A stretch of DNA of 64,000 bases from Candidatus Moraniibacteriota bacterium (lineage in GTDB: Bacteria; Patescibacteriota; Minisyncoccia; Moranbacterales; UBA1568). The DNA lies in NCBI GenBank assembly GCA_028688415.1, contig JAQTYF010000001.1, forward strand, positions 464,627 through 528,626, in the 5' to 3' direction. Numbering within the stretch: the first letter of the stretch is position 1; each line of letters begins with the position of its first letter. Below, in pieces: positions 38,957-61,915 of the stretch. A program made the translations under genes and the position numbers. The notes under the pieces are model-generated. The model did not search any database and was not told the DNA's origin. It worked only from the letters and a program-made list of their open reading frames with translations.

Positions 38957-39600
38957 ATTTTCTTTTGAATAATTGATTGTCGTATCATATACACTACCAT
39001 CAGAAATGCGCCTATCTCGACGAGAACAATCATCTGAGAACCAATCGGAAGTGTACCTGCATAAGAAAAAAGAATCGCAAACGGAGTCACTCCTATCAAT
39101 GTAGAAAGAAAAAAGAGACGATGAGACAAGGATGAGAATAATCCGATACCATAAGAGAGCACATCAACAGGAACGATCATTCGAAGGAACACAATAGTCC
39201 AAAAAATATTTTTCTGAGAAAGTTGTTTCTCAAAATTTGTAATTTTCTCCAATGAAATAAACTTTTTCACAAACAAACGCCCATATCTTCGGGAGAGAAA
39301 AAAAGCAATTTGCGAACCCATAGTCCACCCGATGACAGAGAGTACGCTGGTTATTTGAAAGCCCCATACACTTACAGCAATCGGTATGAGAGGAAGCGTA
39401 GAGACTGGGGCGAACACGATAGCGAGTCCTGTAATGAAAACGTAGCTGACCATACCAAAAACTCCCTGATACTTTACAATATTTTGAATATCATTTTGAT
39501 ATGTCTGTGCAAATATGGTGGCTATAACGAAAAAAATCACAACAACAAGAAAACCAATTGTTGCACCGATTATTTTTTTATTGAAGAACTTCTCTAACAT
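38953..39600 (-). CDS. DedA/TVP38 family membrane protein (second paralog)
   Basis: 215 aa polytopic; tandem with the previous gene. Confidence 0.6.
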   Translation of the reverse strand: MLEKFFNKKIIGATIGFLVVVIFFVIATIFAQTYQNDIQNIVKYQGVFGMVSYVFITGLAIVFAPVSTLPLIPIAVSVWGFQITSVLSVIGWTMGSQIAFFLSRRYGRLFVKKFISLEKITNFEKQLSQKNIFWTIVFLRMIVPVDVLSYGIGLFSSLSHRLFFLSTLIGVTPFAILFSYAGTLPIGSQMIVLVEIGAFLMVVYMIRQSIIQKKI

Positions 39601-39650
39601 ATCCCTTCCCTATTATTTCCTATATTGTACCCTATCGACATTTCAACATT

Positions 39651-40367
39651 TCAACGGAGAAATTTAGTTTCGATTTGACTCACATCAAAATAACCCTGTT
39701 CGATAAGGAACGATTCCGCTTCTTTGTCCCATCCGAATATGATAGCCAATCCAACAAAAATAAGGATTCCTCCTAATATCTTCTTGAATTTTCCTTGCGG
39801 ATCAGAAGCCCATTTCATCTTACCAATCGCCCTCTGACCGAAAAACGCAACAAGTAGCAGTACCACCGAAAGACCAACTGCATACGCTATGAGATTAGCA
39901 ATCCCAACAGCAAAACTCTGTGGCAATACTATAGCAACTATCAGTGCGTATGTCGGACTACAGCTCGAAAAAACTGGACCGAGCGCCATACCAACCAATA
40001 CCCCGCCCCACCTCCCGCTGTGCTGATGCGAATCATGCAGAAGGTTTTGTGATCGATTACCAAAACCAAAAGCAGTCTCGATCTTCCCCCACAACTGAGG
40101 GAAGAACGTAACAAAACCAAAAACAAGAACAATGCCACCAGAAATTCCTTTCCAGACTTCCGGAGGCACAGCAATCAGAGCAGTACTCGACTTCAAAAGT
40201 AATGTAAAAAGAACAATCGATAGTGCGAGTGATCCTGTAACAATAAACGGTCTCAGACGATCACGATCTACCACTGATCCGCCGATAATCACAGGAAGTA
40301 CAGGGAGTACGCACGGTGCTAAAATTGTGAGTACTCCTGCTAGAAATGAGAAAAAAAGAATTTCCAT
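39651..40367 (-). CDS. ccdA: Cytochrome c-type biogenesis / thiol-disulfide transmembrane electron transfer protein CcdA (DsbD family)
   Basis: LAGVLTILAPCVLPVLPV with the second Cys in SSCSPTYALIV. Confidence 0.8.
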   Translation of the reverse strand: MEILFFSFLAGVLTILAPCVLPVLPVIIGGSVVDRDRLRPFIVTGSLALSIVLFTLLLKSSTALIAVPPEVWKGISGGIVLVFGFVTFFPQLWGKIETAFGFGNRSQNLLHDSHQHSGRWGGVLVGMALGPVFSSCSPTYALIVAIVLPQSFAVGIANLIAYAVGLSVVLLLVAFFGQRAIGKMKWASDPQGKFKKILGGILIFVGLAIIFGWDKEAESFLIEQGYFDVSQIETKFLR

Positions 40368-40368
40368 A

Positions 40369-40902
40369 TTATTCTATTTCACGTACAAGATCATTCAGTG
40401 TCACCGAGCCACCCCACTTCGCAATTTCTTTCCCGTCCGCATCGACTTGCACAATCGTGTGTTGCATCACAACGCCATATTTCTTTTTTAAATCAGTATA
40501 TTTGTCATAATCAACATCCAAGATAGTCACATTTGCCGGAATCTCATTTAGATGCGCACGAATATCAGCATCGAGAGCTTTACACGAAGGACACCAAGAT
40601 GCTCTGAAGAAGAGTGCTACTTTCCCGTCATTAGCCTTGACCAATTTGACTGGATCATACACTTCATATGAACCAACGCCTTGGTTCACTGTCTCTACTA
40701 CTGCTTCCGACTCTTCAGTTTCGATCACGACGCTTTGCTGATTTTCTTGTTTTACAACGTTTTTAATAGGAGTATTTTTTCTCGCAAGAAATATGTACCC
40801 ACCAGCTACTATCAGTACGAGTACTATTCCTACGAACATTTTATCATGTACACACATTCCTACTTTTTCTTGACACCCACTCATTGGACAAACTTTAGAC
40901 AT
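40369..40902 (-). CDS. Membrane-anchored thioredoxin-like protein (TlpA/ResA-like)
   Basis: N-terminal CPMSGC..C.H, a TM helix, and the Trx motif FFRASWCPSCK. The Trx domain is paralogous to the C-terminus of the 36475-38346 protein. Confidence 0.7.
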   Translation of the reverse strand: MSKVCPMSGCQEKVGMCVHDKMFVGIVLVLIVAGGYIFLARKNTPIKNVVKQENQQSVVIETEESEAVVETVNQGVGSYEVYDPVKLVKANDGKVALFFRASWCPSCKALDADIRAHLNEIPANVTILDVDYDKYTDLKKKYGVVMQHTIVQVDADGKEIAKWGGSVTLNDLVREIE

Positions 40903-46869: not shown

Positions 46870-47745
46870 TTATTTTTGCTCTAAAAACTTTCTCAATTCC
46901 TCCTGTCTTTCCTTAAATCCACCAAATTCTCTTTGAAAGTCGGTCTTTTTGTAAAGCTGATATACAAATCCCTTCTCCGTCAAAATTACTCGCGAGTCGC
47001 CATCATTGGAGTTTTCTATTTCTGAATCAAACAACCTTTTTTCTACGTTTTTCTTTTTTGCAAACAACCCCTTAAAAACTTCCCTGCTCATATCAGAAAC
47101 AAACTTATCAAGACCGTTGGCCAAAGCGTTACTTTTCTCAGTGATCTTTTCTTCTAAAGACAGGAGATCCTTCCTCTCATCTTCTATGATGGCTTCATCC
47201 TTCATCAGACTAAGCATAGAATAGCTGCTTAGCTTTCTCTGATATTCCAACAAATCTTCAGCGAAGATTATCTCAAGATCAAAGAGAAACTTCGACTCCC
47301 TATCTATCTTTTCAGAAAACAACGCTTTCCAAAATTGGAAAAATTCGTAGAATATTTGAAAATCAGCCTGAAGATTACTTACTTTTTTACTAAGTTCCTT
47401 GCTATTTCGCTGGAGAGTTTCCGTAGGATAATCATCTGTATTTTTCGGATTACTTTTCTCAAGGAAAAAAGAATTCGTTACAAAAGGACTCAGAGCATAA
47501 AAAGACTTATGTAGTCCATCGACGAGCAAATTTGTTATTTTTTCATGGACATCTAGTTTTTTCTTAAAAGAAATTTCTCTCGTCAAAATAAAATACGTAA
47601 CAAAAAAACCAAATATCAATACAAATGATTGAAACAAAGATGAAAACGCATCCCAATTAAAAGAACTTTCGCTGTTTGAAAAAATCAAGCCGGAAAACAC
47701 GGCTTGAAGTATAAGAATTAATACGAGTAGGATTTTCTCAAACAT
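46870..47745 (-). CDS. Hypothetical membrane-anchored coiled-coil protein
   Basis: Two N-terminal TM segments and a long predicted coiled coil. Confidence 0.4.
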   Translation of the reverse strand: MFEKILLVLILILQAVFSGLIFSNSESSFNWDAFSSLFQSFVLIFGFFVTYFILTREISFKKKLDVHEKITNLLVDGLHKSFYALSPFVTNSFFLEKSNPKNTDDYPTETLQRNSKELSKKVSNLQADFQIFYEFFQFWKALFSEKIDRESKFLFDLEIIFAEDLLEYQRKLSSYSMLSLMKDEAIIEDERKDLLSLEEKITEKSNALANGLDKFVSDMSREVFKGLFAKKKNVEKRLFDSEIENSNDGDSRVILTEKGFVYQLYKKTDFQREFGGFKERQEELRKFLEQK

Positions 47746-47964
47746 ATCGTATTAGTAGGTTACGCATATTTATTATATTGCGTAAGTTCCTTTTTCGAAA
47801 TCTTCCAAATAACTTTCAACTTCTTGAGGAAGTTTTGCAAAAATAGATCAAAGATCAGTCGAGAGCCGTCCTCGGCCAGATTATTATTTCTTCAGAAGCT
47901 TTCTGCATTTTCACACAAATTTATTGGACATATTTATAAAAATACAGCGCTATTACAAAACTTA

Positions 47965-48618
47965 TCATTCTTTAACAACCATCCATTTTTTCTTTTCATC
48001 GCCATACATCACAAAATATATCATCCGCTGTATAACGCCAAAATAGATTGGAAATAGGATGAACCAACTAAAAAATGACACTACCCAACCTACAATCGTA
48101 ATCAGCCTATGCGAAATATGATCATGTCTCACCTGCGGATAAATTAATCTCCACGCCATAAGAATAAATTCCTTAAATCCAATTTTATCCATTGACTCTC
48201 TATTTTTTGCTTTTTGTATTAAAATAATTAGCCGTACAATATCAAAAAATATTCCAAAAAAAACAAAAGTGATAACTACACCCCATATGGGGAAAAAATA
48301 TAAAAATGGCACCCCCACAATAATCCATAAAATTGCAACTCCAAAAAACAAAGATATCAAATTACTATCAAATTTGAATTCTTGAGCATCAAGCGTTGCA
48401 AGTTTTTTAACATTTCTTATTATCCAGTAGCCAATAGAGCTCAATGATAATCCAGCAAAAATAACCCAGATTAAAATATCAGTGAATTTTGAATCTCCTT
48501 TTAAAACAATAAAATAAAAAGCAAGCGAGAGAATAATAATTCCAATGCCTACTATCAATGCTGAGCTTGCAATAAAATGCATACGTGAATACATTTTTTG
48601 AATTCTTTCATTGATCAT
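47965..48618 (-). CDS. Hypothetical polytopic membrane protein
   Basis: Hydrophobic profile only. Confidence 0.4.
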   Translation of the reverse strand: MINERIQKMYSRMHFIASSALIVGIGIIILSLAFYFIVLKGDSKFTDILIWVIFAGLSLSSIGYWIIRNVKKLATLDAQEFKFDSNLISLFFGVAILWIIVGVPFLYFFPIWGVVITFVFFGIFFDIVRLIILIQKAKNRESMDKIGFKEFILMAWRLIYPQVRHDHISHRLITIVGWVVSFFSWFILFPIYFGVIQRMIYFVMYGDEKKKWMVVKE

Positions 48619-48651
48619 ATGTTAAAAAATTTTAATAATTATTAATTGTTA

Positions 48652-49764
48652 CTATTTTTTGCACTGTTTCTGATAATATGGGATTGATTTTACAAAATTC
48701 AATGCTTTTTCATCTATAAGATCTCCCTCATTTTTTGCTATGACCAGTAGAGTTTGAAACAATTGCGCAACTTCCTGAGTTTTTGTCATTCTCGATTGTA
48801 AAGATTTTTCTTCCTCATCATTTAATACATGGTAAACAAACCTTCCCTCTGAAATAAATGCGCTCGCTTCTGCCCTATAACATCCATCTTCAGAATTAAC
48901 ATCTTCATTATTAGCATACTGAAAAACATGAGTTAATTCATGACGCAATAAAACTGCAGTCAATAAATCATCTTTTATGCTGTATTTAGGAGAAACTTTT
49001 ATCAAATATTCATCTAGTGAATGCATAGGAGAAAAAACAAAAACTCCTTCTGCACCATTAATTTCCTTGCTAGATTCTGAATATTCAATTTTGAGACAAT
49101 TTTTGATGCTTTCTAAGCGACCTGACTCCTCGATATTCCCGCGATTTCTGTATCTCTGTTCAATAAGACTTAGCGACCGCTTAAACTCTTCTGACATTTC
49201 ATATCCACTTTCTCTAATACAATAAATAGGTGTTTCATTAAAAACAATCAGCCATTCGTTGTTAATTTTGATAAATTTTCTATATATTCTTTTTGGGTAA
49301 TCCTTATCAGCTAAGTTAAAAATGCTTGTTTCATCAACATGTCCTATATCATTTTTTATAATCACCTTATTTACTTCTACGGTTTTTCCTTTCTTTAAAT
49401 CATTTAAAAATATTTTAGATCTTTCATCTTCTGGATTTTGTTGTGCATACTCAATTAGTCGTTGCAATACTGATTCCTGCGAATATATAGCACCTCGTTT
49501 TTCGATATATTTTTCTCTACTTATTTTATGCTTAGACTCTGGCGATAAATAAGAATCATATATTTTTCCAAAATCATTATTGCTTTCCAATTCAAATATT
49601 TCATTGAATCTTTTGACAAGCTTATCTTCATCACTGATGCTTATTGATTGCTCCTGTTTGTTTTTTAAAAAAGAAAAATTTTCTAATTCATAAAGTTTAA
49701 TATAAACGCCTAAAGCCACTATCAACACTACACTTATTAGGATAACTATCAATTTTTTATTCAT
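48652..49764 (-). CDS. Putative zinc metallopeptidase (HExxH) with an N-terminal TM anchor
   Basis: LRHELTHVFQY motif. Co-oriented with and adjacent to the XRE HTH gene, an ImmR/ImmA-like arrangement. Confidence 0.45.
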   Translation of the reverse strand: MNKKLIVILISVVLIVALGVYIKLYELENFSFLKNKQEQSISISDEDKLVKRFNEIFELESNNDFGKIYDSYLSPESKHKISREKYIEKRGAIYSQESVLQRLIEYAQQNPEDERSKIFLNDLKKGKTVEVNKVIIKNDIGHVDETSIFNLADKDYPKRIYRKFIKINNEWLIVFNETPIYCIRESGYEMSEEFKRSLSLIEQRYRNRGNIEESGRLESIKNCLKIEYSESSKEINGAEGVFVFSPMHSLDEYLIKVSPKYSIKDDLLTAVLLRHELTHVFQYANNEDVNSEDGCYRAEASAFISEGRFVYHVLNDEEEKSLQSRMTKTQEVAQLFQTLLVIAKNEGDLIDEKALNFVKSIPYYQKQCKK

Positions 49765-49773
49765 AAATTTATT

Positions 49774-49971
49774 TTATTTGATTAACTCATCAACACTAAC
49801 CTCAAGCGCTTTAGAAATCTTCTTGAGCGTATCAAGTGTTGGATTTTGGTTTTTACCAACTTCAATCTTGATGATTGTGTTATTGGCAACATCAGCCAAT
49901 CGTGCCAGTTTTTCTTGTGATAATCCCTTGGCTTCTCGTAACTTCCTCAGATTTTTTGTTATATTTGACAT
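49774..49971 (-). CDS. XRE-family HTH transcriptional regulator
   Basis: LREAKGLSQEKLARLADVANNTIIKIEVGK, a classic Cro/C1 HTH; 65 aa. Confidence 0.75.
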   Translation of the reverse strand: MSNITKNLRKLREAKGLSQEKLARLADVANNTIIKIEVGKNQNPTLDTLKKISKALEVSVDELIK

Positions 49972-50107
49972 ACTTATATTATAGTAGTAGAATTATAGTG
50001 TTAGTACTATTTCTTTTCTATTACTTTGATGCTACACCAAAATTTCAGACAAATCAAACTAAATGACTTTTTATGTTATTAGTAAAAATCTATTCCGATC
50101 GTAAATC

Positions 50108-50330
50108 AGCAGCCGTTCCCCGCCGCACTGCTCCAAAGAGCAGTCCTCATCAGAAAAGCTTTCTTTTCCTTAAGAGAAGAAAAGATCCGGCGCGCGCAAA
50201 TCCGAAATGCAAAGAAAGGTTTTTCTGATGGGGAGTCCCGAGGCTTCAGGACTACGGTGGGGACGGCTTCCGCTTTCTTACTCAGGGTTTTTGGCGAAAT
50301 ACATTCGAACTTCGTCCAATATGCACCGCA
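50108..50330. repeat. Right arm of the 222-bp inverted repeat
   Basis: Reverse complement of 44279-44500. Confidence 0.9.
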
Positions 50331-50447
50331 AAAATTCGGAATTCAAAACTGGAGAAGAAATAGCGTCGACGCGTAGCGCCGTCTGTTCTGCATTCCCCCC
50401 ACGAAATCCCCAATCTGAAAGGATTCGCCACGCGGAGCGGGGCTCCT
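50328..50447. repeat. 116-120 bp unit, inverted relative to the copy at 51853-51968
   Basis: About 95 percent identity to the reverse complement of 51853-51968. It is contiguous with the right inverted-repeat arm, so 50108-50447 forms one roughly 340-bp unit. Confidence 0.85.
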
Positions 50448-50466: not shown

Positions 50467-52005
50467 ATGAATCACACCAGAAAGTTCTTTATCTATACAC
50501 GAAAGAGTACCGATACGGAAGATCGGCAGGTCAGAAGCATTTCGGATCAACTGGCCGAACTCAAAGAATTGGCGGTAAAAGAAAATATCGAGGTTGTTGA
50601 TGTCTTTGTGGAAAAACAGACCGCCAAAGTCCCCGGCCGACCAGTCTTTAATGAAATGCTTCTACGTATCGAAGCAAATGAAGCGAGCGGGATTTTATCG
50701 TGGCATCCCGATCGTTTGGCTCGAAACTCCGTAGATGGTGGCAAGATCATCTATTTGCTCGATACGGGAAAAATAACCGAACTGAAATTTCCAACGTTCT
50801 GGTGTGATCCGACACCGCAAGGAAAGTTCATGCTCTCCATCGCTTTTTCCCAATCCAAGTATTACGTGGACAATTTGAGTGAAAATATCAAGCGTGGGCA
50901 CCGCAACAAAGTGAAGGATGGTATCTGGCCTCAAATGGCTCCTCTGGGGTATGTAAACGTCAAAGGAAGAGGTATTGCGCCACATCCAGAGCTTGCGCCC
51001 CTCATATGCAAGGCATTTGAGGCCTACGCCACAGGCAACTTCACTTTGCGTCAGATTCGCGAAAAGTTTAACGCGCTTGGATTGAAAGGAAAAAGTACAG
51101 AGCTTTCAGTGTCGAACTATCAGACGATTCTCCATAACCCTATCTACTGCGGATTGATCCGCTACAATGGCGAAATCTACGAAGGTAAGTACGAGCCGAT
51201 TATCCCAAAGAAACTTTTTGATCTCTGTCAGGAAGTGATGACAAGAAAGAGCAAGCCGAAAGGCAAAGGTTTGAAAACATATTTGTATCGAGGATTTTTC
51301 CGTTGCGGAGAATGCGGGTGTTTCATTACAACCGAAACACAAAAAGGTCATAACTATTTGCGATGTACGAAACGGAAAAATCCTTGTTTGCAAAAATATG
51401 TCCGTGAAGAACTCATCACTTCTCAAATTAAAGAAGAAATCAAAAAAGTTTCTTTGCCACTCGATTGGGCAAATTGGATGATTGTCGAAAATGAAAAAGA
51501 CCGACAATCAGAAAATCAACCAAGCGAGCTTTTTGCTCAAAAAACCAAAGATGAAATTTCTCTTTTGGATTCTAAAATTGAGAAGCTGATGACTGCGTAT
51601 TTAGAGAGTGTGCTTTCATTGGAAGAATATCGAACAATGAAAAGCAAGCTGGTCAATCAAAAACAGCTTCTCAAAGAGAAATTGGCTGCTTTTGAGCAAA
51701 AAGCGAATAATCGGTTCGAACTCACTAACAAGTTTCTAAAACTCAATCTGGAAGCCAAGGAATTGGCAAACGAGCGAACAGACGAAGAAAATCTTCATCT
51801 GTTCAAAAAGATCGGTTCGAACTTTATTTTGGAAGCTCGAACCATATCTTTTGAGCCCCGCTCCGCGTGGCGCATCCTCTCAGATCGGGGATTTCGTGGG
51901 GGGAACGCAGAACAGACGGCGCTACGCGTCGACGCTATTTCTTCTCCAATTTTGAATTCCGAATTTTTGCGGAGAGGGAGGGATTCGAACCCTCGAGAGT
52001 TGTAA
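50467..52005 (+). CDS. Large serine recombinase (resolvase catalytic domain, recombinase domain, zinc ribbon, coiled coil)
   Basis: YTRKSTDTEDRQ (catalytic Ser), DRLARN, recombinase domain, CGECGC...C..C zinc ribbon. The ORF reads through the repeat at 51853-51968 and into the tRNA, so the true 3-prime end is uncertain. Confidence 0.85.
   Translation: MNHTRKFFIYTRKSTDTEDRQVRSISDQLAELKELAVKENIEVVDVFVEKQTAKVPGRPVFNEMLLRIEANEASGILSWHPDRLARNSVDGGKIIYLLDTGKITELKFPTFWCDPTPQGKFMLSIAFSQSKYYVDNLSENIKRGHRNKVKDGIWPQMAPLGYVNVKGRGIAPHPELAPLICKAFEAYATGNFTLRQIREKFNALGLKGKSTELSVSNYQTILHNPIYCGLIRYNGEIYEGKYEPIIPKKLFDLCQEVMTRKSKPKGKGLKTYLYRGFFRCGECGCFITTETQKGHNYLRCTKRKNPCLQKYVREELITSQIKEEIKKVSLPLDWANWMIVENEKDRQSENQPSELFAQKTKDEISLLDSKIEKLMTAYLESVLSLEEYRTMKSKLVNQKQLLKEKLAAFEQKANNRFELTNKFLKLNLEAKELANERTDEENLHLFKKIGSNFILEARTISFEPRSAWRILSDRGFRGGNAEQTALRVDAISSPILNSEFLRRGRDSNPREL
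51853..51968. repeat. 116-bp unit immediately 3-prime of tRNA-Ser(GCU)
   Basis: Inverted copy of 50328-50447. Confidence 0.85.
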
Positions 52006-52056
52006 CACTCTACCACGTTAGCAGTGTGGGGCCTTCAGCCGCTCGGCCACCTCTCC
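51970..52056 (-). tRNA. tRNA-Ser (anticodon GCU), long variable arm
   Basis: Reverse complement reads GGAGAGGTGGCCGAGCGGCTGAAGGC..CTGCTAA..GAGGGTTCGAATCCCTCCCTCTCC, with the same layout as E. coli tRNA-Ser(GCU). Confidence 0.8.
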
Positions 52057-52069
52057 TTTTTTGCTTTAT

Positions 52070-53098
52070 CTAAGCCATTTTATATCTTTCCAAGTGTTTC
52101 GGATTATGTGTCCCGACGACCTGAAAATACTTTTCGACATCCTTCCTCGCTTCTATACGTATATCCCAACCATTTTTCATTATGCGGTGTTTGATACCTA
52201 AAATCAAGAGGATCTCACTCGCTGACTGGAGAAGCGGATGTGATCGACTGGTAAAACCAATCTTTTTGTAACAATATCTCTTCCCTTTTGAGAGGTACTT
52301 ATGCAGTATAATACAACCATCAGTATCAATCAAGCCACGCAGGCAAGCAATGGAATAGCACTGATTTTTCTTTACCCATAACGGAATGTCGACTTGTTGC
52401 TTTACTTTGTTCCCCTGCTTCAATCCTAGTTCATCAATAAGATACGTGATGAGAGCAGTTCGTGAGACCATAATACGTTCAGCAAGAAATTTCTTATTCA
52501 GACAAACCCCAAAAGAAACCTCAAAAAGATTGTTGATTAATTGCTGAACAAATATTGAGTACTTTTTATCGGTTAGAGTGTTGAGGGTAATTGTAAATTG
52601 ATGTTTACTTATTCCTCCGTCTCCGAGCATTATTCCGACAAACTCAGCGAGGTCTTCTGACGGTGTCGGTCTCTTGAAAGGAAGTGCTTGAGTAATTTTT
52701 GATGGGTTGAGATGTCCTTCTTTTTCCCACCATTCTCGCCACTTCGTTTTGCGATATTCGGGGTCACCTCCTACGATGCCGTATTTCTTCAGAACTGCTT
52801 TTCCTCCAGCTGATGAACCTTGCTTGGTATACCAATAAGCATCTTTGATAACAATGTTTTCCGGCATTTCTCTTTTTCTTTTCTTGCAAATCTGCTCGAC
52901 AGCAAAAAGTGACATCGAAATTTTTTCATTCCTCCAATCATTGAGATTGCGCACGCTCGTCCCAGCGACTTCCGCTAATTTTTCCCACGTACCAAAAAAT
53001 TCTTCTTTCGATTGCAAAAGAAACTCTTTTTGTTTTCCTTTTGGAAATATAACTCTTTTAGAATTCAACTGTTCAGCCATATCTCCATAATAGCACAA
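52070..53098 (-). CDS. Free-standing double-motif LAGLIDADG endonuclease-like protein with an N-terminal HTH-like extension
   Basis: Motif 1 EFVGIMLGDGGIS and motif 2 LRGLIDTDGCII, spaced about 100 aa apart as in single-chain LAGLIDADG enzymes. Confidence 0.6.
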   Translation of the reverse strand: MCYYGDMAEQLNSKRVIFPKGKQKEFLLQSKEEFFGTWEKLAEVAGTSVRNLNDWRNEKISMSLFAVEQICKKRKREMPENIVIKDAYWYTKQGSSAGGKAVLKKYGIVGGDPEYRKTKWREWWEKEGHLNPSKITQALPFKRPTPSEDLAEFVGIMLGDGGISKHQFTITLNTLTDKKYSIFVQQLINNLFEVSFGVCLNKKFLAERIMVSRTALITYLIDELGLKQGNKVKQQVDIPLWVKKNQCYSIACLRGLIDTDGCIILHKYLSKGKRYCYKKIGFTSRSHPLLQSASEILLILGIKHRIMKNGWDIRIEARKDVEKYFQVVGTHNPKHLERYKMA

Positions 53099-53855: not shown

Positions 53856-54182
53856 CTACCAACGGCTTGCGCCCTGATCATTGCTTCCGCTGTTGTTGTA
53901 ACTGCGGTTGCCACCAGTGCGAGGAGCACGCTCTTCCATAGGACGAGCTTCGTTGACAGTGAGTGTACGTCCGTCGAGTTCTTTGCCATTCCAGAGAGCG
54001 ATAGCTTTTTGAGCATCTTCTTCTGAAGCCATCTCAACAAATGCGAAACCGCGTGAGCGACCTGTCATTTTGTCGATGATGATTTTGGCAGAAACGACTG
54101 CACCTGCTTGAGCAAAAGCTGCTTGCAGAGCATCCTCGGTAGAACCGTAGGAAACGCCACCAACATACAATTTGGTTGCCAT
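53856..54182 (-). CDS. RRM-type glycine-rich RNA-binding protein
   Basis: KLYVGGVSYGSTEDAL (RNP2) and RGFAFVEM (RNP1). Confidence 0.85.
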   Translation of the reverse strand: MATKLYVGGVSYGSTEDALQAAFAQAGAVVSAKIIIDKMTGRSRGFAFVEMASEEDAQKAIALWNGKELDGRTLTVNEARPMEERAPRTGGNRSYNNSGSNDQGASRW

Positions 54183-54370: not shown

Positions 54371-54571
54371 CTAATCAGAGGAACAGCGTCCATTTGTTAC
54401 CTGGATATCCAGCCGATTCAAAGCAATGACAGCCTGTTCTAGCGTCTCCCCTGCCTGCACCGTCATTTCTATCGTATCATCATTGATTTTCTTCACACCA
54501 AAACGTGCGATAAGTTCCTCGGTCGATGAAGAGAGAGGTGTGATGAGATCAAAAAGGAATGTTTTTTTCAT
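54371..54571 (-). CDS. Small hypothetical protein at the 3-prime end of the Ehr-like operon
   Basis: The ORF spans 54371-54688; the start is taken at MKKTFLFD to avoid overlap. Confidence 0.3.
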   Translation of the reverse strand: MKKTFLFDLITPLSSSTEELIARFGVKKINDDTIEMTVQAGETLEQAVIALNRLDIQVTNGRCSSD

Positions 54572-54593
54572 ACGCGTTCTCCTATTATAGACA

Positions 54594-56153
54594 CTACAAA
54601 TCATTTCCCGAATAGGAAAGATTGAAACTTTTGTTGATAAGTGGGAAATCTGGAACAACATTGTCGAAACCAGCACTCCGAAGAGCATTCCAGTTCACAA
54701 ACGACGGGTCCCGAGGAAACACACGACTCACTCGTCCGTCACTATCAGTGGTGATGAAATACATAATCTCTCCTCGCCAACCCTCTACCGCACTCAGTGC
54801 AAGAGCGTTCTTCTGAAGAACAATCGGCTCTGTGACATCCGCACGAATCAGTCCGAGAGGAAGAGTTTCGAGAAGAGAGGTAATAATATGGAACGATGTG
54901 TATACTTCTTTCACGCGTATATGGAATCGAGCGAATGCGTCACCCTCTGATTCGATAGGGATATCACCAAGAGAAACCATAGTGTATCCTGCATACGGAT
55001 AGTCCCATCGTGTGTCTTGTACGATACCGCTCGCTCGTCCTGCAACACCGATGATACCCATATCGCTCGCTACATCACTGACGAGTGTGCCGGTCTCTCT
55101 CATACGATTGAGAAGTGATGTACTGTTCTCTGCGACATCAATAATCTCTGTAAAATCTCGTTTAAGAGACTGTATCTCTTCTCCGAGCAGATGCTGTTGT
55201 TCTGGTGTCATGTCCCGAGTCACACCACCGACGACATTGACCCCGCGAAGAAACCGGCTTCCTGTCAATCGTTCATTGATACGAAGCACTGTCTCTCGAA
55301 TCCTCGCACCCTGAGCCCCACCAAAATTAAATCCTGTATCCATCATCATCGCTCCGATATCTCCGAAATGATTCGCGAGTCGTTCGAGCTCTGCATAGAT
55401 CACTCGAAGGGCGAGACCGCGTATTGGTACGGATATCGCTCCCAGTTGCTCGATTGCCTGACAGAATGCAAATGAATGAGAAAAAGAACTGTCTCCAGAT
55501 ATTTTTTCAGAAAGACGTACCTGATCACTCATTGACAACGCTTCGAACAATTTCTCAGTGCCTTTGTGAGTAAATCCAAGACGAGCTTCAAGAAGAACAA
55601 TACTCTCCCCTGCTACACTAAAACGGAAATGTCCCGGCTCGATAATCCCCGCATGAATCGGACCAACGGGAATTTCATAAATACCCTCTCCGGATACTTC
55701 CTGAAAATCGTATCTCCCACTCACTCTCTCTGGTCTCGTCTGCATATCAAAATCCAGGCGGAGCGGGAATACGTCCTCTGGCCAATGCTCATGCAAGATG
55801 AGTGATCGCAGATCGGGATGATCGACTGGGGTCAGTCCAAAAAAAGTATGTACACGTCGTTCATAATTCCATGCCGAATGAATGAATGGTGCGAGTGAAG
55901 GAAAATCCGTGGTATCACGGAGGAGAGTCGAAAGAACAACAAAGGAATGCTGTTTTGCATCACCAAAGACATACCAAAGATTGAAACCGTTTTGTGTTTC
56001 ACGTTCGTCCGTAGCAGTCATCAGTTTGAATACGAGATGATCTTTTTCTACAAGATCAATCGCTGTTTGTACGATATCAACAACCGGTACTTCTACAACA
56101 GTCATCGTACCAACAGTCATTGTTTTGAAATTTTTCGAAAATGAATAGGTCAT
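54594..56153 (-). CDS. Ehr-type NuoC/NuoD-like fused large subunit lacking NiFe-ligand cysteines
   Basis: GPIHAGIIEPGHFRF resembles HycE/EchE. KISGDS stands where RICGIC is expected, and DPSFVNW stands at the C-terminal DPCxxC position. Confidence 0.8.
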   Translation of the reverse strand: MTYSFSKNFKTMTVGTMTVVEVPVVDIVQTAIDLVEKDHLVFKLMTATDERETQNGFNLWYVFGDAKQHSFVVLSTLLRDTTDFPSLAPFIHSAWNYERRVHTFFGLTPVDHPDLRSLILHEHWPEDVFPLRLDFDMQTRPERVSGRYDFQEVSGEGIYEIPVGPIHAGIIEPGHFRFSVAGESIVLLEARLGFTHKGTEKLFEALSMSDQVRLSEKISGDSSFSHSFAFCQAIEQLGAISVPIRGLALRVIYAELERLANHFGDIGAMMMDTGFNFGGAQGARIRETVLRINERLTGSRFLRGVNVVGGVTRDMTPEQQHLLGEEIQSLKRDFTEIIDVAENSTSLLNRMRETGTLVSDVASDMGIIGVAGRASGIVQDTRWDYPYAGYTMVSLGDIPIESEGDAFARFHIRVKEVYTSFHIITSLLETLPLGLIRADVTEPIVLQKNALALSAVEGWRGEIMYFITTDSDGRVSRVFPRDPSFVNWNALRSAGFDNVVPDFPLINKSFNLSYSGNDL

Positions 56154-56163
56154 AGAAAGTGTG

Positions 56164-57615
56164 TTAGTAATGAGCTACGACATCATCTATCAGTGTCTGG
56201 AGAAATGTCGGAAGCGTAAAACTCAAGACAATAATGAGAATCACGAAAAAAATCTGAGGAATAACAAGCCAGATATTTTTTTCTCCATGTTCTTGATCTC
56301 CTTCTTGCTCTGTACTCTCGGAAAGAAACATCGCAGTAATGTGCCGAAGGAAACCAATGAACACAAGTGTCATAAAGAAAATAGCAGAAAAAGTAACATA
56401 CGGATGTTCTGCAATACCTGCAGAAAGAATATAAATCTTGCTCAAGAATATCCCAAACGGCGGTGTCCCTGTCACGATAAGAAAACCAAGGATGAAAAGC
56501 ACACTCGTGACAGGGATGACGCGCAAGGCATTCTTTACATTACCTATTTTTGCCGATCCATACGTAAGGAGGAGATTGCCTGCAGAGAAAAACATCACGA
56601 CTTTCACACAGGAATGATAGATCATGTGAAGCACTGCACCGAGCACTCCGAGTCCCCCGAAACCAAAACCAAGAGCGATGATACCAGCGTTTTCGATACT
56701 CGAATAGGCGAGAAGACGTTTGTAATTTCTCGCGTTGAACATGATAAGTGCAGCGACAACAATAGAGAGGAGACCAAAGACAAGGAAGAGTTGATGAGAG
56801 AATGACTGTCCGACAACAGCATCGGTGATTCTCTGAAATCGAAGAATAACAAAAAATGCGACTGGGAGGAGCGCTCCAGCAAGCAATGCCCCGAGTGGTG
56901 CAGGAGCTTTACTATACGCATCTGGCTTCCACGTGTGCATCGGAGCGAGTCCTACTTTGGTTCCATAACCGATGAGCACAAAAACAAAAGCGATCTTGGC
57001 AATAAGCGGATCGAGATGATCGGTATTTGAAAGGAGATCACTCCACCCAATAAAACCGCCATTAAGTGTCGATGGAACAGATGTGAAATAGAGCATCGTC
57101 CCAAAAAATCCGAGGAGGAGACCAACAGCATTGATAATGAGATATTTCCAAGCACCTTCGATAGATGATGGTTTGTTATAAAAACTGATGAGAAATGCTG
57201 TCGAGAGTGTCGTCGCTTCGATAGCGATCCAAGCAAAGATAGGACTCGTGGCTGTCGTTGCTAGATACATCGCCACAAGAAAGACAAAGAGAAGTACAAA
57301 ATATTCCTTCACTCGTGTGAAACCGACAATCCCCTTCTTGGTTTCTTGATTGAAATAGGCAACCGAATAGAGAGATGTCGCACATCCAATACAACCGATA
57401 ATAAGGATGATGATCGCTCCAAGGGCGTCCACCGAAAAGAAGAGAGAAGATGTATAGATACCCTCATTCGCAACCGAGAGAGCAATAAGGAAAGAATACA
57501 CCAATACAACGACGCTCGAAAAAATAGAAAGGAGTTCGATGACACGTCGATTCTTGATCAAGACAAGAAGAAGAGAAGTAATAAAAAGTGTCGAAAGAAG
57601 AAGTATGAGGTACAT
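56164..57615 (-). CDS. NuoN/NuoM (MrpD-type antiporter-like) membrane subunit
   Basis: 483 aa with about 14 TM segments and antiporter-like repeats. Confidence 0.75.
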   Translation of the reverse strand: MYLILLLSTLFITSLLLVLIKNRRVIELLSIFSSVVVLVYSFLIALSVANEGIYTSSLFFSVDALGAIIILIIGCIGCATSLYSVAYFNQETKKGIVGFTRVKEYFVLLFVFLVAMYLATTATSPIFAWIAIEATTLSTAFLISFYNKPSSIEGAWKYLIINAVGLLLGFFGTMLYFTSVPSTLNGGFIGWSDLLSNTDHLDPLIAKIAFVFVLIGYGTKVGLAPMHTWKPDAYSKAPAPLGALLAGALLPVAFFVILRFQRITDAVVGQSFSHQLFLVFGLLSIVVAALIMFNARNYKRLLAYSSIENAGIIALGFGFGGLGVLGAVLHMIYHSCVKVVMFFSAGNLLLTYGSAKIGNVKNALRVIPVTSVLFILGFLIVTGTPPFGIFLSKIYILSAGIAEHPYVTFSAIFFMTLVFIGFLRHITAMFLSESTEQEGDQEHGEKNIWLVIPQIFFVILIIVLSFTLPTFLQTLIDDVVAHY

Positions 57616-57618
57616 AGA

Positions 57619-58266
57619 TTAATCTGTTAAATTTTTCATAGTCGTTACATCGTGTGATCGAAAGTGTTTGTAAATCATCGAAACAAAGACCGTCGCGATC
57701 ATAATCCACACAAAAATATTAAAGAGTATTCCTATCTGCAAGTTCGGAGATTGTTCAAGTCCGGCAAAAATGATGAATACGACGATACTGTTTTCGAGAG
57801 ACAATATGCTCAGGATTTGAGAGAGAGCTTCTTTGCGATTGACGATGAGGAAGAGTGCAATGAAAATTGACGAAAGTGTGAGAGAAAGCAAGACTTGATG
57901 TTCTGGGACGATATGTGTGAGAGGAAGGAACTTGTTCGAGTGTGCCATAAATGTCAGTACGGCAATCAAGATGAGAGTGATAGGCATATTCAAATAGGTA
58001 TTCACCGAAAAAGAAAGATTGTTTTTTCGTATCAGTCGGAAGAAGAACATCGGTGCAAGTACTACTTTGATCACAAAAGTAAAAAGCACCATCAGAAGAA
58101 TAGAAGCATTTCCTGTCTCGAGAAAAGAAGAGAAGAAAAGAAGAGCGAGGACGAATGATTGTACACCAAATGCAACCACTGCGACAAAATTCTTTTTTGT
58201 CAGATGCATTACGACGAGTGTGAGAAATATCACATCAACAAGAAATTGGAGAAAAAGTATACTCAT
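57619..58266 (-). CDS. HyfE/NuoK-like small membrane subunit
   Basis: 215 aa polytopic; position in the operon. Confidence 0.5.
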   Translation of the reverse strand: MSILFLQFLVDVIFLTLVVMHLTKKNFVAVVAFGVQSFVLALLFFSSFLETGNASILLMVLFTFVIKVVLAPMFFFRLIRKNNLSFSVNTYLNMPITLILIAVLTFMAHSNKFLPLTHIVPEHQVLLSLTLSSIFIALFLIVNRKEALSQILSILSLENSIVVFIIFAGLEQSPNLQIGILFNIFVWIMIATVFVSMIYKHFRSHDVTTMKNLTD

Positions 58267-59195
58267 AAAGAATGGACGAGGCCGATAGCCACAGCGTTAA
58301 GGATGAACGATGCTACGAGGAGATCAGGGAGACGGAAAAATCGAAACTTCGCCATACTTGATTCTATCAGAGCGATGACAATACAAAATACAAACAATTT
58401 CAGAAGGAGCGCTCCAATACCGATCAGAAGAGCGCTCATCGACACGCTCGAAGAGAGACCGATAGGAAAGAAAATATTCGCCCCAAGGGCAAAGAACACG
58501 ACAAGCTTGTTCGCTGATGCCCATTCCATCAGTGCGAGACGTTTACCTGAATATTCGAGAATCATTGCCTCGTGAATCATCGTAAGCTCGAGATGCGTCG
58601 CAGGATTGTCGAATGGAAAACGTGCCGTCTCTGCAAGGAGAACAATGAAAAATCCTGAGAATGCAAGTACAACAGGAATAAAGTATTGTCCATTATGAAA
58701 AAGCGGATGAGAGGCGATATCAAAAAGATCAGTCGTCCCCGCCATGAGTGCGAGTGTCAAAAGTGAGAAAATAAATCCCCCTTCAGCGAGAGCTGAAAGA
58801 GTCATCTCGCGACTCGAGCCAAACCCTCCGAAAGCTCCTCCAATATCCATACCAGAAAGAGCGAGGAAGAACGTTCCGAGAGCGAGTGCGTAGACAATTA
58901 CAAGTGCATCACTTGTAAGAGAGAGTCCTGACACAAGAGAGAAGAGAGGTATGTTCCAACCGACAAAGATCGTCACAGTAAAGACGATGAATGGTGCAAC
59001 AAAAAATATCCATGAAGCATCTCTACTCACACGTTCATCTTTGTGGAACAGCTTCCAGAGGTCTCGATATGGCTGTACGATACTGGCGCCCTGTCTGTTT
59101 TGCAACCTCGCCTTGATTTTTTTGATCACACCGACACACAGAGGTGAAACCACTGGAACAAACAAACCTTGAAGAAGAAAAAGAAAGAATGTCAT
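58263..59195 (-). CDS. NuoH/HycD-like membrane subunit
   Basis: QPYRDLWKLFHKDE motif typical of NuoH/HycD. Confidence 0.8.
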   Translation of the reverse strand: MTFFLFLLQGLFVPVVSPLCVGVIKKIKARLQNRQGASIVQPYRDLWKLFHKDERVSRDASWIFFVAPFIVFTVTIFVGWNIPLFSLVSGLSLTSDALVIVYALALGTFFLALSGMDIGGAFGGFGSSREMTLSALAEGGFIFSLLTLALMAGTTDLFDIASHPLFHNGQYFIPVVLAFSGFFIVLLAETARFPFDNPATHLELTMIHEAMILEYSGKRLALMEWASANKLVVFFALGANIFFPIGLSSSVSMSALLIGIGALLLKLFVFCIVIALIESSMAKFRFFRLPDLLVASFILNAVAIGLVHSL

Positions 59196-59198
59196 AGG

Positions 59199-61250
59199 TT
59201 AGAGCACAACAAATAAAGAAAGAATCAACGCAAGAAAAATATATGAAATATACATATTGATATTGCCTCCCTGAATAGTTTTGGAACGGAGAGATGCTTC
59301 GTCAATCATTTTCTGAAGCGGTTGATAGAAATGCGTCAGATAAATATTACCGACACTCATCGTCACTGTTCGAGATTTCGGTATATAACGACTCTTGGCG
59401 TCATGGTATTTGACTGTTTGTTGGATACTTGGCTTCAAAACATTTTTGAACACAAGAATGATCGAGCGAGCAAAACCAGTCGTCGTAATCTCCATCCGCG
59501 TATCGAGATGTGTCCCACAGTCCCATGTGTCCCCAAATGATATTTTCTGAGTGCTATTGATACCGAATCGTACAAGAAGAAAAACTCCAAAAAGAATAAT
59601 CGCCAAAAAAGAAAATATTGCTGGTGCTGATACGAGAGCAAATCCGTCAGTCAATTGAAGTGTCTGCATAGACGATACAGAGACAAACACTTTCACATTG
59701 TGAAAAATATCAAGACGCTGTCCGACGAAAGCAATCGTTTCTGTCACGAACCCCGCAAAAAGACCGAAAAGTATGGAGAGGAATGCGAGTCCTCCCATCG
59801 CGAGACGCATCGAGAGTACTGACTCTTTTACGTGCATCACTTCTTTACTTCGAGGTCGGGCGAGAAATATCCCTGCGAATGCTTTCACAAAACATGTGAG
59901 TGCGAGACCTCCTGTGAAAGCAAGTGATCCCGCTGCCAGCACGAAAATAAATTGGAGAGAAAAAGAAAGTGTCGCAATCCCCTGAAACAATGATTGGAAC
60001 GTCAACCATTCACTGAAAAATCCATTGAAGGGAGGGAGGGCAGATATCGCCATCGAACCAATAAGAAAGAAGAGTGCTGTCTGTGGCATGTACCGGATGA
60101 GCCCTCCATATTCTTCCATATTCTTCGTGTGCATCTGATCAATGACCGAACCAGCACCGAGGAAAAGGAGGGATTTGAAAAGTGCATGATTGATCGTATG
60201 GAACAGTCCTGCAATCAGTCCAAGGAGGGCGAGTGATTTCATATCGAGAGCATAGAACGTGATCGAACTTCCGATACCGAGTAAGATGATTCCAATATTT
60301 TCGATACTATGATATGCGAGAAGTCTTTTGATATCATGTTCGGTTAGTGCATAGAGCACACCAAGGATCGATGACACCATACCGATCACGAGTACGACCT
60401 CTCCCCACCAGAGAGGTACTGGTGCGAGCACATCGAGGAAGAGACGAATCATCATATAAATACCTGTCTTGATCATCACGCCCGACATCATCGCGGACAC
60501 ATGAGAGGGAGCGGCTGGGTGTGCGGCAGGGAGCCAGATGTGAAACGGGATAATACCCGCCTTGGTCCCAAACCCGATAAGAGCACAGGCAAACATCGCA
60601 TTCTGAATCATCTGTGGTATGAGTGCATGATGCAGTTTGATCACGTCAAACTGAAATGATCCAGTATATTTGTACGCCATGAGAAAAAACGCAATGATGA
60701 ATGCGGTGCCGACATACGTCATAATGAGATACAAAAATCCTGCTTTCACATTGCTCGCATCACGACGATCATACACCACGAGAAAATATGATGCGATGGA
60801 CATTGTCTCCCATGCAATGAGAAAGAAGAGCGCATTGGAGGTCGTCACGACGAGAAGCAAACTTCCCAGAAGAATATGGTAGAGAAATCCAAGTACTCCG
60901 ATACTGTATTTTCCATAATAATGCTTCACATACCCGAATCCATAGAGGGAGCAGAAGAAACCAACGAGAGAAATAGCAAATATGAAAAAAGCTGACAACA
61001 TATCAATACGAAGAGAGAACTGCAAAAATACAAATGATGTCTGAAAAAGTGAAAACGACATTTCTCGTCCTTGTATCAACATTAGAAGAGAAAAAATAAT
61101 TCCCACGAGAGAACCGAACAAAGCAAAAAAACTACTCCAAACATTGGCCCATGTATCATGATTGCGAAACACAAGTGATCCGATCGCTCCCACAGCAAAA
61201 ACAGAAAGTAATACGAGGAATCCTGCTTGCGATGAAATGAAGGCAATCAT
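59199..61250 (-). CDS. NuoL/HyfB-like antiporter-type membrane subunit
   Basis: 683 aa; WLPAAHPAAPSHVSAMMSGVMIKTG core. Confidence 0.8.
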   Translation of the reverse strand: MIAFISSQAGFLVLLSVFAVGAIGSLVFRNHDTWANVWSSFFALFGSLVGIIFSLLMLIQGREMSFSLFQTSFVFLQFSLRIDMLSAFFIFAISLVGFFCSLYGFGYVKHYYGKYSIGVLGFLYHILLGSLLLVVTTSNALFFLIAWETMSIASYFLVVYDRRDASNVKAGFLYLIMTYVGTAFIIAFFLMAYKYTGSFQFDVIKLHHALIPQMIQNAMFACALIGFGTKAGIIPFHIWLPAAHPAAPSHVSAMMSGVMIKTGIYMMIRLFLDVLAPVPLWWGEVVLVIGMVSSILGVLYALTEHDIKRLLAYHSIENIGIILLGIGSSITFYALDMKSLALLGLIAGLFHTINHALFKSLLFLGAGSVIDQMHTKNMEEYGGLIRYMPQTALFFLIGSMAISALPPFNGFFSEWLTFQSLFQGIATLSFSLQFIFVLAAGSLAFTGGLALTCFVKAFAGIFLARPRSKEVMHVKESVLSMRLAMGGLAFLSILFGLFAGFVTETIAFVGQRLDIFHNVKVFVSVSSMQTLQLTDGFALVSAPAIFSFLAIILFGVFLLVRFGINSTQKISFGDTWDCGTHLDTRMEITTTGFARSIILVFKNVLKPSIQQTVKYHDAKSRYIPKSRTVTMSVGNIYLTHFYQPLQKMIDEASLRSKTIQGGNINMYISYIFLALILSLFVVL

Positions 61251-61262
61251 AATATGTCTGAA

Positions 61263-61802
61263 TTATTTCGATGATTCATGCTCTATTGTCTGTAGAATAT
61301 TGAGGAGAGCACACAAAATTTTCTTGGGTGATGGCGGATCCCCAGGAATATGATAGTTCACAGGTATTACAGCATCCACACCTCCGACCACGGCATACGA
61401 GTTGCGGAATATCCCACCAGAGAGAGCGTCGTCCCCTACTGCCACGACGATTTTTGGATCTGGAGTAGCATCGTATGCGGACTTCACTGCCTCAGCCATA
61501 TTGCGTGTGATCGGACCAGTCACGAGAAGCATATCAGCATGTCGTGGAGACGCGACAAAATGAATGCCGAATCGTTCGACATCATAGAAACTATTCGAGA
61601 GTGCGACGAGCTCCTGTTCACACGCATTGTCCGAACCTCCATCCACCTGTCGTATAGCGAGTGATCCTCCGAAGAGTCGTTTCACAGAATTTTGTATTTG
61701 TTCACCGACGACGACAATATCTGCATCCTCGAGATCTGTTCGATCATCGATAGCAATAATATTGTTTTTGGTACGAAATATTTTCAAGAAAAGATTCATC
61801 AT
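61263..61802 (-). CDS. NuoB-like small subunit lacking FeS-ligand cysteines
   Basis: At the positions of the NuoB CCxxE, GxCxxxGG and PGCPP motifs it reads SDNACEQE, GDDALSGG and PGDPPSP. Confidence 0.75.
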   Translation of the reverse strand: MMNLFLKIFRTKNNIIAIDDRTDLEDADIVVVGEQIQNSVKRLFGGSLAIRQVDGGSDNACEQELVALSNSFYDVERFGIHFVASPRHADMLLVTGPITRNMAEAVKSAYDATPDPKIVVAVGDDALSGGIFRNSYAVVGGVDAVIPVNYHIPGDPPSPKKILCALLNILQTIEHESSK

Positions 61803-61915
61803 ATCTGTTTGTCATTCTTATCCCTATTCAATCAAAACGACAAAGAAGTCTGCCTCTAGAGTATAAACGGATTTTTATTTTTTTCAAAGAAGTTGATATT
61901 TCTCTCAATTCCACT

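Follow-up and report, generated by a model that had tools for sequence, protein, structure and literature searches.

We analysed a 64-kb stretch of DNA from a Candidatus Moraniibacteriota bacterium (contig JAQTYF010000001.1; 'the window' below means this whole stretch), whose minus strand carries, at positions 54371-61802, an operon for a membrane complex. By its gene content the locus encodes a six-subunit complex of the Ehr (energy-converting hydrogenase related) family, with the Hyf architecture minus HyfA, HyfD and HyfH, together with one lineage-specific small protein. Its ligand residues place the complex in a derived Ehr sub-clade: beyond the loss of the nickel-iron (NiFe) cysteines common to all Ehr, this sub-clade has also lost the last cofactor site, which now reads D-C-D-D/N. 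Because no electron-carrying site is left, redox-driven pumping is not to be expected. We tentatively propose that the complex may be a redox-independent secondary proton/cation (Na+ or K+) antiporter or gradient converter working with the F1Fo ATPase, a reading that could well be right and is weighed below against several others.

Product identities were obtained by searches against Pfam, NCBIfam and PDB sequences. In gene order, the conserved unit consists of a NuoB/HyfI/HycG-like small subunit (61263-61802, 179 aa; PF01058, 1.8e-26), a HyfB/HycC/NuoL-like antiporter-type subunit (59199-61250, 683 aa; NF005086, hydrogenase 4 subunit B, 3.3e-193, 643.8 bits; HycC 7z0s_C, 2.2e-76), a NuoH/HyfC/HycD-like subunit (58263-59195, 310 aa; PF00146, 1.1e-42), a HyfE-like subunit with a NuoK-like C-terminal half (57619-58266, 215 aa; NF008556, 2.5e-13; PF00420, 1.4e-07), a HyfF/NuoN-like antiporter-type subunit (56164-57615, 483 aa; NF005044, 3.2e-121) and a fused NuoC+NuoD, or HyfG/HycE-like, large subunit (54594-56153, 519 aa; PF00329 and PF00346; best solved relative E. 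coli HycE, 7z0s_E, 1.9e-72). All six, like every motif of the operon located below, lie on the minus strand. Operon genes are spaced by -4 to 22 nt, and the six core reading frames are all intact. The list of open reading frames (ORFs) and the profile searches confirmed the extent of the operon given in an earlier note on this DNA, along with its five membrane and peripheral subunit types and the fused NuoC/D. The same note had counted seven genes; six of them form the core, and the seventh, a small ORF, is conserved in very close relatives only. Among ORFs of at least 150 aa in the window there are no hyp maturation genes, no respiratory genes and no other hydrogenase genes, so that the earlier remark that no other respiratory genes are visible holds and the suggested check for linked NiFe maturation genes (hypA-F) came out empty. 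An endopeptidase gene is likewise absent from these ORFs, and neither it nor hyp maturation genes turned up in the 10 kb upstream of the operon.

The state of the former metal sites was read by comparing ligand columns residue by residue with the solved HycE, MbhL and Nqo4 for the large subunit and MbhJ and HycG for the small one. Five true hydrogenases of the same operon architecture, including those of Thermincola ferriacetica and Ectobacillus funiculus, served as a second reference set. In the large subunit, the equivalent of the L1 motif RxCGxCxxxH is KISGDSSFSH (55476-55505): ERICG[AV]C of true hydrogenases aligns with EKISGDS, both cysteines being replaced by serine (S219 and S222). The alignments with solved proteins and with true hydrogenases agree here with the earlier proposal that KISGDS stands in place of RICGIC. 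The L2 motif, (D/E)(P/L)CxxC, has its true equivalent at the C-terminus, where ELCY[AS]C of hydrogenases aligns with NLSYSG (54606-54623) and the two cysteines have become S513 and G516. DPSFVNW (54690-54710), which had been offered as the DPCxxC equivalent, was rejected: it lies 25 residues upstream of NLSYSG and aligns with a non-ligand motif, RSASYCNW in hydrogenases and RAPSFVNL in Nqo4. The overall claim that NiFe ligands are missing stands in spite of this one misassignment among the four motifs offered.

Thus, of the four cysteines that mark the large subunit of a group 4 [NiFe] hydrogenase none is present (S219, S222, S513, G516), as against four out of four for the true hydrogenases in the same alignment. 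The four columns read SSSG in 119 of the 121 closest sequences, and S[STENM]SG or AESG in 78 of 83 related large subunits. Across 30 diverse relatives most of the former NiFe pocket is unchanged: K217, S219, G220, D221, S222, S223, F224 and H226 are constant and I218 and S225 vary, while the C-terminal PDFPLINKSFNLSYSGNDL is for the most part kept, as are E172, H175 and R177. E172 is the retained Glu of the hydrogenase proton pathway, while D221, found in all Ehr, stands where true hydrogenases have Ala or Val. A hydrogenase-type GPxHxxxxEPGHFR motif is present as well. On our reading of the alignment, the quinone-binding Tyr position of NuoD (in Nqo4, presumably Tyr87) coincides with G220, i.e. 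with Gly, as in hydrogenases.

In the small subunit, whose best PDB matches are MbhJ (1.5e-31) and HycG (2.5e-30), GSCNGC aligns with GSDNAC, VGAC with VGDD and PGCPP with PGDPP, giving the net pattern D-C-D-D. SDNACEQE (61611-61634), the equivalent of SCNGCxxE in hydrogenases and CCxxE in complex I, has D58 for the first cysteine and keeps the second as C61; GDDALSGG (61413-61436), the equivalent of GACxxxGG, has D125 for the third; and PGDPP (61332-61346), the equivalent of PGCPP, has D155 for the fourth. One of the four cysteines that hold the proximal [4Fe-4S] cluster in group 4 hydrogenases is therefore left. The earlier note had all of them replaced; three are indeed Asp, and C61 is retained. 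Apart from it, alignment with the HycE/NuoD and HycG references, which that note had suggested as a check, bore out the ligand substitutions in this subunit.

The pattern is stable among near relatives. In the 121 closest small subunits it is DCDD in 78, DCDN in 40, DIDD in two and DADD in one, D58 and D125 being invariant and C61 present in 118. More distant members of the clade that lacks the iron-sulfur (FeS) site have TCDD, DCGD, TEGD, SEGD, SEAN or DVEN. An AlphaFold2 model of the NuoB-like subunit, built with 32 close homologues, had a mean pLDDT (predicted local distance difference test score) of 47, too low for the geometry of the Asp site to be read.

We placed the complex among its relatives by scoring the ligand columns in two sets of 80 loci each, one taken from genomes that represent species and the other from metagenomes; counts are given over 159 loci. 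The family is very large, with at least 8000 candidates in each of two database searches. Among the best 120 of these, nearly all large subunits are 58-66% identical to the query, their source names spanning several candidate phyla, and small subunits are about 70% identical. The small subunit has all four cysteines (CCCC) in 102 of the 159 loci, which represent ordinary Ehr and come from Nitrospira, ammonia-oxidising archaea, Acidobacteriota, Verrucomicrobiota, Rokubacteria, Firmicutes and methanotrophs. At most one cysteine is found in 56 loci, the window's clade included. The large subunit is Cys-free in nearly all scored loci, the five true hydrogenases forming the outgroup. Most of the FeS-less clade belongs to Patescibacteria (Moran-, Magasanikii-, Falkow-, Davies- and Saccharibacteria, and Gracilibacteria). 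It also contains metagenome-assembled genomes from outside the candidate phyla radiation (CPR), namely from Firestonebacteria, Endomicrobiales, Fibrobacteria, Thermoleophilia and Bdellovibrionales.

A neighbour-joining tree, with the true hydrogenases as its root, groups the window with the other FeS-less sequences in a single clade inside FeS-containing Ehr; locus L065, on a long branch, is the exception and falls apart from this clade. Since the tree carries no support values, the placement is provisional. The assignment to Ehr, already made in the earlier note, is supported by this nested position, by a group-4-type large subunit without NiFe cysteines and by an operon of HyfB-, HyfC-, HyfE-, HyfF- and NuoB-like genes. 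An N2-type [4Fe-4S] site in the small subunit, which is typical of Ehr and no formal criterion for it, is missing from the window's complex. Two further observations were made among FeS-containing loci. In Nitrospirota loci L050 and L051 two complete Ehr operons stand in tandem; they are paralogous, with SSSG and STSG large subunits, and both have four-Cys small subunits. The Rokubacteria locus L030 has an FeS-type Ehr whose small subunit keeps three of four cysteines (P-C-C-C) and may represent an intermediate of cluster loss.

The ion-translocation apparatus appears intact, since its canonical charged residues are all conserved as well as they are in true hydrogenases. In the HyfB/NuoL-like subunit E148, K230, H237, H244, K261, H351, H355, K359 and E414 are conserved in the FeS-less clade, in ordinary Ehr and in true hydrogenases. 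E133, K220, H227, H330, H334 and K338 of the HyfF/NuoN-like subunit are conserved, and its position in transmembrane helix (TM) 12 is either Lys or Glu (here K393). The NuoH-like subunit keeps E130, E138, E189, R192, D196, H201, E203, H208, E209 and E214 in all groups, and the HyfE-like one K67 and E158. Described by helix, the Glu of TM5, the Lys of TM7 and of TM8, the His/His/Lys of TM11 and the Glu/Lys of TM12 are as fully conserved as in true hydrogenases. Very few positions separate the FeS-less clade from ordinary Ehr. Among those that do are two acidic residues of the NuoH-like subunit, E54 and D59, which are peculiar to the clade. Both lie in the subunit's first cytoplasmic loop, and motif comparison with NuoH suggests that this loop faces the peripheral arm.

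With respect to known transporter and respiratory complexes, the set of subunits is mixed. The Glu/Lys set of MrpA/MrpD-type subunits is present in both antiporter-type subunits (E148, K230 and E414 in the NuoL-like one; E133, K220 and K393 in the NuoN-like one). MrpB, C, E, F and G are missing, the HyfE-like protein is the only small membrane subunit, and NuoB/NuoCD-like subunits make up a peripheral arm. The operon contains no homologues of NuoA, I, E, F or G, its N2 ligands are gone and, as noted above, Gly occupies the quinone Tyr position, which separates it from complex I.

The cofactor-less arm is conserved at least as well as the membrane arm when measured in bits per residue: 1.37 for the small subunit and 1.25 for the NuoCD-like one, compared with 0.96-1.30 for the membrane subunits. 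The large-subunit gene differs from that of a 98%-identical relative by 16 synonymous and 10 nonsynonymous codon changes. Judged by these figures, selection on the cofactor-less arm is strong.

A search of the neighbourhood in 13 FeS-less loci with flanks revealed no conserved redox partner gene beside the operon; gene contexts vary, with the exception of ATP synthase. Where an FeS-less locus has 3 kb or more of flanking sequence, F1Fo ATP synthase genes stand next to the operon in 11 cases out of 31, and with 6 kb or more in 10 out of 22; among FeS-containing loci the count is 0 of 83. The linked loci are L096, L097, L098, L105, L106, L133, L136, L165, L007, L012 and L065 (also L006, L095 and L118). 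Usually c ... alpha-gamma-beta-epsilon are followed, on the same strand, by the NuoB-like gene, the gap between atpC and the latter being 9 nt in L097, 12 nt in L098, 78 nt in L133, 130 nt in L105 and 132 nt in L096. Because these gaps are short in several relatives, the atp genes and the operon may form a single transcription unit. Linked members span the ligand patterns DCDD, DADD, DCDN, TCDD, TEGD and SEGD. Na+-binding c-rings are marked by a Gln/Ser/Thr motif; the adjoining c-subunits read ...AFAEA(V/I)AIYALV, without these residues, which suggests that the adjoining ATPase is proton-coupled.

Taken together, intact proton paths, the lack of a redox centre or partner enzyme, and ATPase linkage in at least a third of related loci make an Mrp-type antiporter the simplest model. 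In such a scheme the F1Fo ATPase would make a proton gradient, which is how a fermentative host would energise its membrane, and the complex would spend that gradient on Na+ export or K+ exchange and on pH control. The two Mrp/NuoL-type subunits, together with the NuoH/HyfE channel, would carry out the antiport. Instead of bringing in electrons, the peripheral arm would cap or gate the complex on its cytoplasmic side, or sense ions or pH there; geometrically, exchange of the four cubane thiolates for carboxylates could create a cation or proton site. In this model the translocation of ions, the antiport, its direction, the identity of the ion and the part played by the peripheral arm are all elements that we infer. 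The earlier note had suggested a redox-independent ion pump or antiporter. Its antiporter half is the best fit; pumping would call for a source of energy, of which none is encoded, so that only the antiporter or gradient-converter version is mechanistically viable.

Several points weigh against this model. The complex lacks the MrpB/E/F/G-type small subunits of a true Mrp. An arm of about 700 residues, with strong selection and an invariant pocket, appears to be more than a passive cap needs and hints at ligand binding or catalysis. Because the Asp pattern varies across the wider clade (TCDD, TEGD, SEGD, DCGD), a fixed metal or sensor site in the NuoB-like subunit is not general. The significance attached to the ATP synthase linkage (Fisher p = 1.3e-7 for 11 of 31 against 0 of 83 loci) overstates the case, since the linked loci share ancestry. 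The window's own genome has no ATP synthase genes within 10 kb of the operon, and non-CPR members of the FeS-less clade have no such linkage either.

A more far-reaching idea, conceivable but one on which we would not rely, is that of a 'redox-free complex I', a complete L-shaped machine of the hydrogenase/complex I type with no redox cofactor left. It would keep a strongly selected peripheral arm and all its proton paths, and in many Patescibacteria it would be transcribed together with the F1Fo ATP synthase. Its antiporter modules would be gated or driven by ions or protons bound either at the former N2 site, now lined with Asp, or at the former NiFe pocket. Since the FeS-less clade sits inside ordinary Ehr and has hardly any further changes of its own, the idea would imply that electrons do not drive Ehr complexes in general (those of Nitrospira, ammonia-oxidising archaea, Geobacter and others) and that their single cluster plays a structural or regulatory part.

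Among the alternatives, the strongest, although we consider it unlikely, is that the former NiFe pocket binds a small molecule and that a non-redox reaction is coupled there, in either direction, to protons of the membrane arm. Cyanobacterial NDH-1, whose Cup modules hydrate CO2, and the CO2-hydrating DabA/DabB would provide the analogy. Chemistry in the pocket, or a ligand, would better explain why its residues are largely invariant across the 30 diverse relatives, and the retained proton-path Glu E172, the presence of D221 in all Ehr where true hydrogenases have Ala/Val, and a peripheral arm at least as conserved as the membrane arm are consistent with the same idea. However, there is no recognisable catalytic metal site (no carbonic-anhydrase-type His/Cys/Asp triad), and no conserved neighbour gene points to a substrate. 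Moreover, FeS-containing Ehr share the pocket, so the loss of the cluster would be left unexplained.

Retention of redox activity in cryptic form is quite improbable. Here Asp and Cys would bind an unconventional redox metal, or a separate partner would deliver electrons to a substrate at the interface. The constancy of D58, D125 and, in 118 of 121 close relatives, C61 is what such a site would require, and single Asp ligands to [4Fe-4S] clusters occur in other proteins. Yet three carboxylates and one thiol match no known FeS ligand set, and elsewhere in the clade the pattern decays to the Cys-free TEGD, SEGD, SEAN and DVEN. The operon has no NuoI/HycF-type or other FeS subunit and no conserved redox neighbour, the NuoD quinone Tyr is replaced by Gly, and CPR bacteria generally lack quinones and electron-transport chains. 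On the other side of the balance, formate dehydrogenase has been put forward as a partner of FeS-containing Ehr (PMC6349859).

The ATP synthase linkage also invites the view that the complex is an accessory of the F1Fo ATPase, a physically attached module that would regulate it, anchor it or feed it ions. That linkage is exclusive to the FeS-less clade, and in L097 and L098, with their 9-12 nt gaps, operon and atp genes look like one transcription unit. We give this view little chance, however, as more than half of the loci are unlinked, the window's genome among them, no known ATP synthase has such a partner, and the full set of proton-path residues argues for a transport activity of the complex's own. 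Finally, although all cofactor ligands are lost, the view that the complex is a decaying relic without function, left over from a hydrogenase or Ehr, is very improbable and was rejected because of the conservation seen, the pocket invariance, the conservation of the arm and the excess of synonymous over nonsynonymous differences from a close relative excluding it, in line with six intact frames in a tightly spaced operon, invariant motifs and thousands of homologues (about 60-70% identical among the best 120).

The significance of the complex goes beyond the locus itself. How events at the quinone/N2 site reach the distant antiporter-like subunits of complex I is a long-standing question. A widespread natural relative that keeps the whole complex I architecture without a redox centre would offer a test object for this problem of long-range coupling. 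If the complex does transport ions, coupling at the NuoH/NuoB/NuoD interface can run on something besides electron transfer. The complex also bears on how Patescibacteria, which have no electron-transport chains, maintain membrane potential and ion balance alongside ATP synthase, and on the role of Ehr in environmentally important nitrifiers and metal reducers.

Downstream of the core genes, the small ORF is a 66-aa gene at 54371-54571 on the minus strand. It begins with ATG at 54571, is preceded by AGGAG and follows the large-subunit gene by 22 nt. The earlier start at 54688, which gave a 105-aa product overlapping the end of the large-subunit gene, was corrected accordingly, and public gene calls agree with the shorter form. 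The gene holds the same position in L081 and L082, where it is followed by the same RRM gene; between L081 and the window the large subunits are 76% identical and the 66-aa proteins 65%. It is absent at all 80 GTDB loci examined. Homology searches gave only a handful of close relatives (two matches in 5.8 billion proteins and seven in 1.84 billion cluster representatives), and the protein was therefore rejected as a core subunit. We conclude that the gene is real, lineage-specific and outside the core complex. Its product has a predicted beta-alpha-beta-beta-alpha-beta fold (pLDDT 88.9) and no Pfam match, and a fold search with the model returned only generic ferredoxin-like/HMA-type matches (best E = 0.027). 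We assign no function to it because these matches are generic and the CxxC motif of HMA domains is missing. P0243, a repeat protein of 1442 aa, shares a short motif with the 66-aa protein: 15 separate parts of P0243 match residues 22-44 of the latter.

The RRM-type RNA-binding gene lies at 53856-54182, 188 nt 3' of the operon, with no terminator-like site between, and its position is conserved in L081 and L082. Beyond it, at 53815-53780, comes a strong terminator-like hairpin. At the other end, 5' of the first gene, the region's best promoter consensus match, TTGAAA and TATACT separated by a 16-nt spacer, is found at 61860-61887 on the minus strand. It agrees with the consensus at 10 of 12 positions and is a consensus match only, the total of such sites found being no higher than in shuffled sequence. 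As to the host, the small-subunit protein is 100% identical to an NCBI protein named Candidatus Moranbacteria, a tiny-genome bacterium that falls in the Parcubacteria/Patescibacteria group, and the complete operon has 100% DNA identity with a contig of assembly GCA_028699965.1.

Other genes of the window are of the housekeeping type (DnaE, GatA/B, LigA, ClpB, a type IV pilus cluster, ThyA/DHFR, LexA). A thiol-redox/membrane cluster at 36475-40902 encodes a pyridine nucleotide-disulfide oxidoreductase-thioredoxin fusion, two VTT/DedA proteins, a DsbD-like protein and a thioredoxin-like one. A large serine recombinase gene (50467-52005) is flanked by a 120-nt inverted repeat, 96% complementary, at 50326-50445 and 51853-51972. 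The right arm ends at tRNA-Ser(GCT) (51969-52056), and the whole might be a segment that inserted at the tRNA and is able to invert or move. Beside the recombinase, at 46870-49764, stand three ORFs (291, 217 and 370 aa) without a Pfam match, which may be foreign DNA; G+C at 48001-50000 is 0.30, compared with about 0.42 elsewhere in the window. A free-standing LAGLIDADG-domain gene (52070-53098) is located between the tRNA-Ser and a 3-methyladenine glycosylase gene, as it is in the close relative L082.

Ehr complexes have been defined as relatives of group 4 hydrogenases without NiFe ligands, with no function assigned (PMC6349859, PMC10284858, PMC10432482, PMC7894505). Jaffe et al. 2020 described within Ehr a monophyletic CPR group whose large subunits lack the L1 and L2 cysteines and inferred that it is unable to interact with H2; their examination was confined to L1 and L2 of the large subunit (PMC7304191). 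The CPR Ehr of that study are very probably the same gene family as the window's, and the gene cluster itself is thus already known. Loss of the small-subunit cluster, non-CPR members and the ATP synthase linkage are not part of that description. The earlier note had taken cofactor-less Ehr to be described already; this is true of the loss of NiFe cysteines (PMC7304191). Typical Ehr keep all four small-subunit cysteines (102 of 159 loci), and we did not find a description of a sub-clade that has lost the FeS site. In full-text searches of the literature we did not find cluster loss in the small subunit as a clade trait, the spread of the FeS-less clade beyond CPR, or linkage of Ehr and ATP synthase operons, although a mention of any of the three in Marreiros et al. 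2013 (BBA) is possible.

Ordinary Ehr share with the window the same six subunit types, the lack of NiFe cysteines and the ISGD(S/T/E) and NLSY(S/A)G motifs, but keep the four-Cys cluster of the small subunit and show no ATP synthase linkage. Gene order differs as well, being B-L-H-E-N-CD in the window and L-H-E-N-CD-B in many Ehr. Hydrogenase-4, or formate hydrogenlyase 2 (FHL-2; HyfA-J), and E. coli FHL-1 (HycB-G, PDB 7Z0S) provide the best match for every subunit and have the same fused NuoC+D. Unlike them, the window has no NiFe site, no FeS cluster, no HyfA, HyfD or ferredoxin-like HyfH/HycF, no formate dehydrogenase, and no maturation genes or protease nearby. Mrp (Mnh/Pha/Sha) antiporters resemble the window's complex in having two MrpA/MrpD-type subunits with the full Lys/Glu/His set, no redox cofactors and the same proposed mode; they have neither a peripheral arm nor a NuoH-like subunit, and MrpB/E/F/G are present in Mrp only. 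As for complex I, its deactive mitochondrial form, uncoupled from the redox domain, is reported to behave like a Na+/H+ antiporter (PMC3464577), which sets a precedent for the proposed antiport. The large subunit of MBS, in the MBS/MBX complexes of Pyrococcus furiosus (PDB 6U8Y), also lacks NiFe cysteines. In contrast to the window's complex, both MBS/MBX and deactive complex I retain their FeS clusters and are redox enzymes when active.

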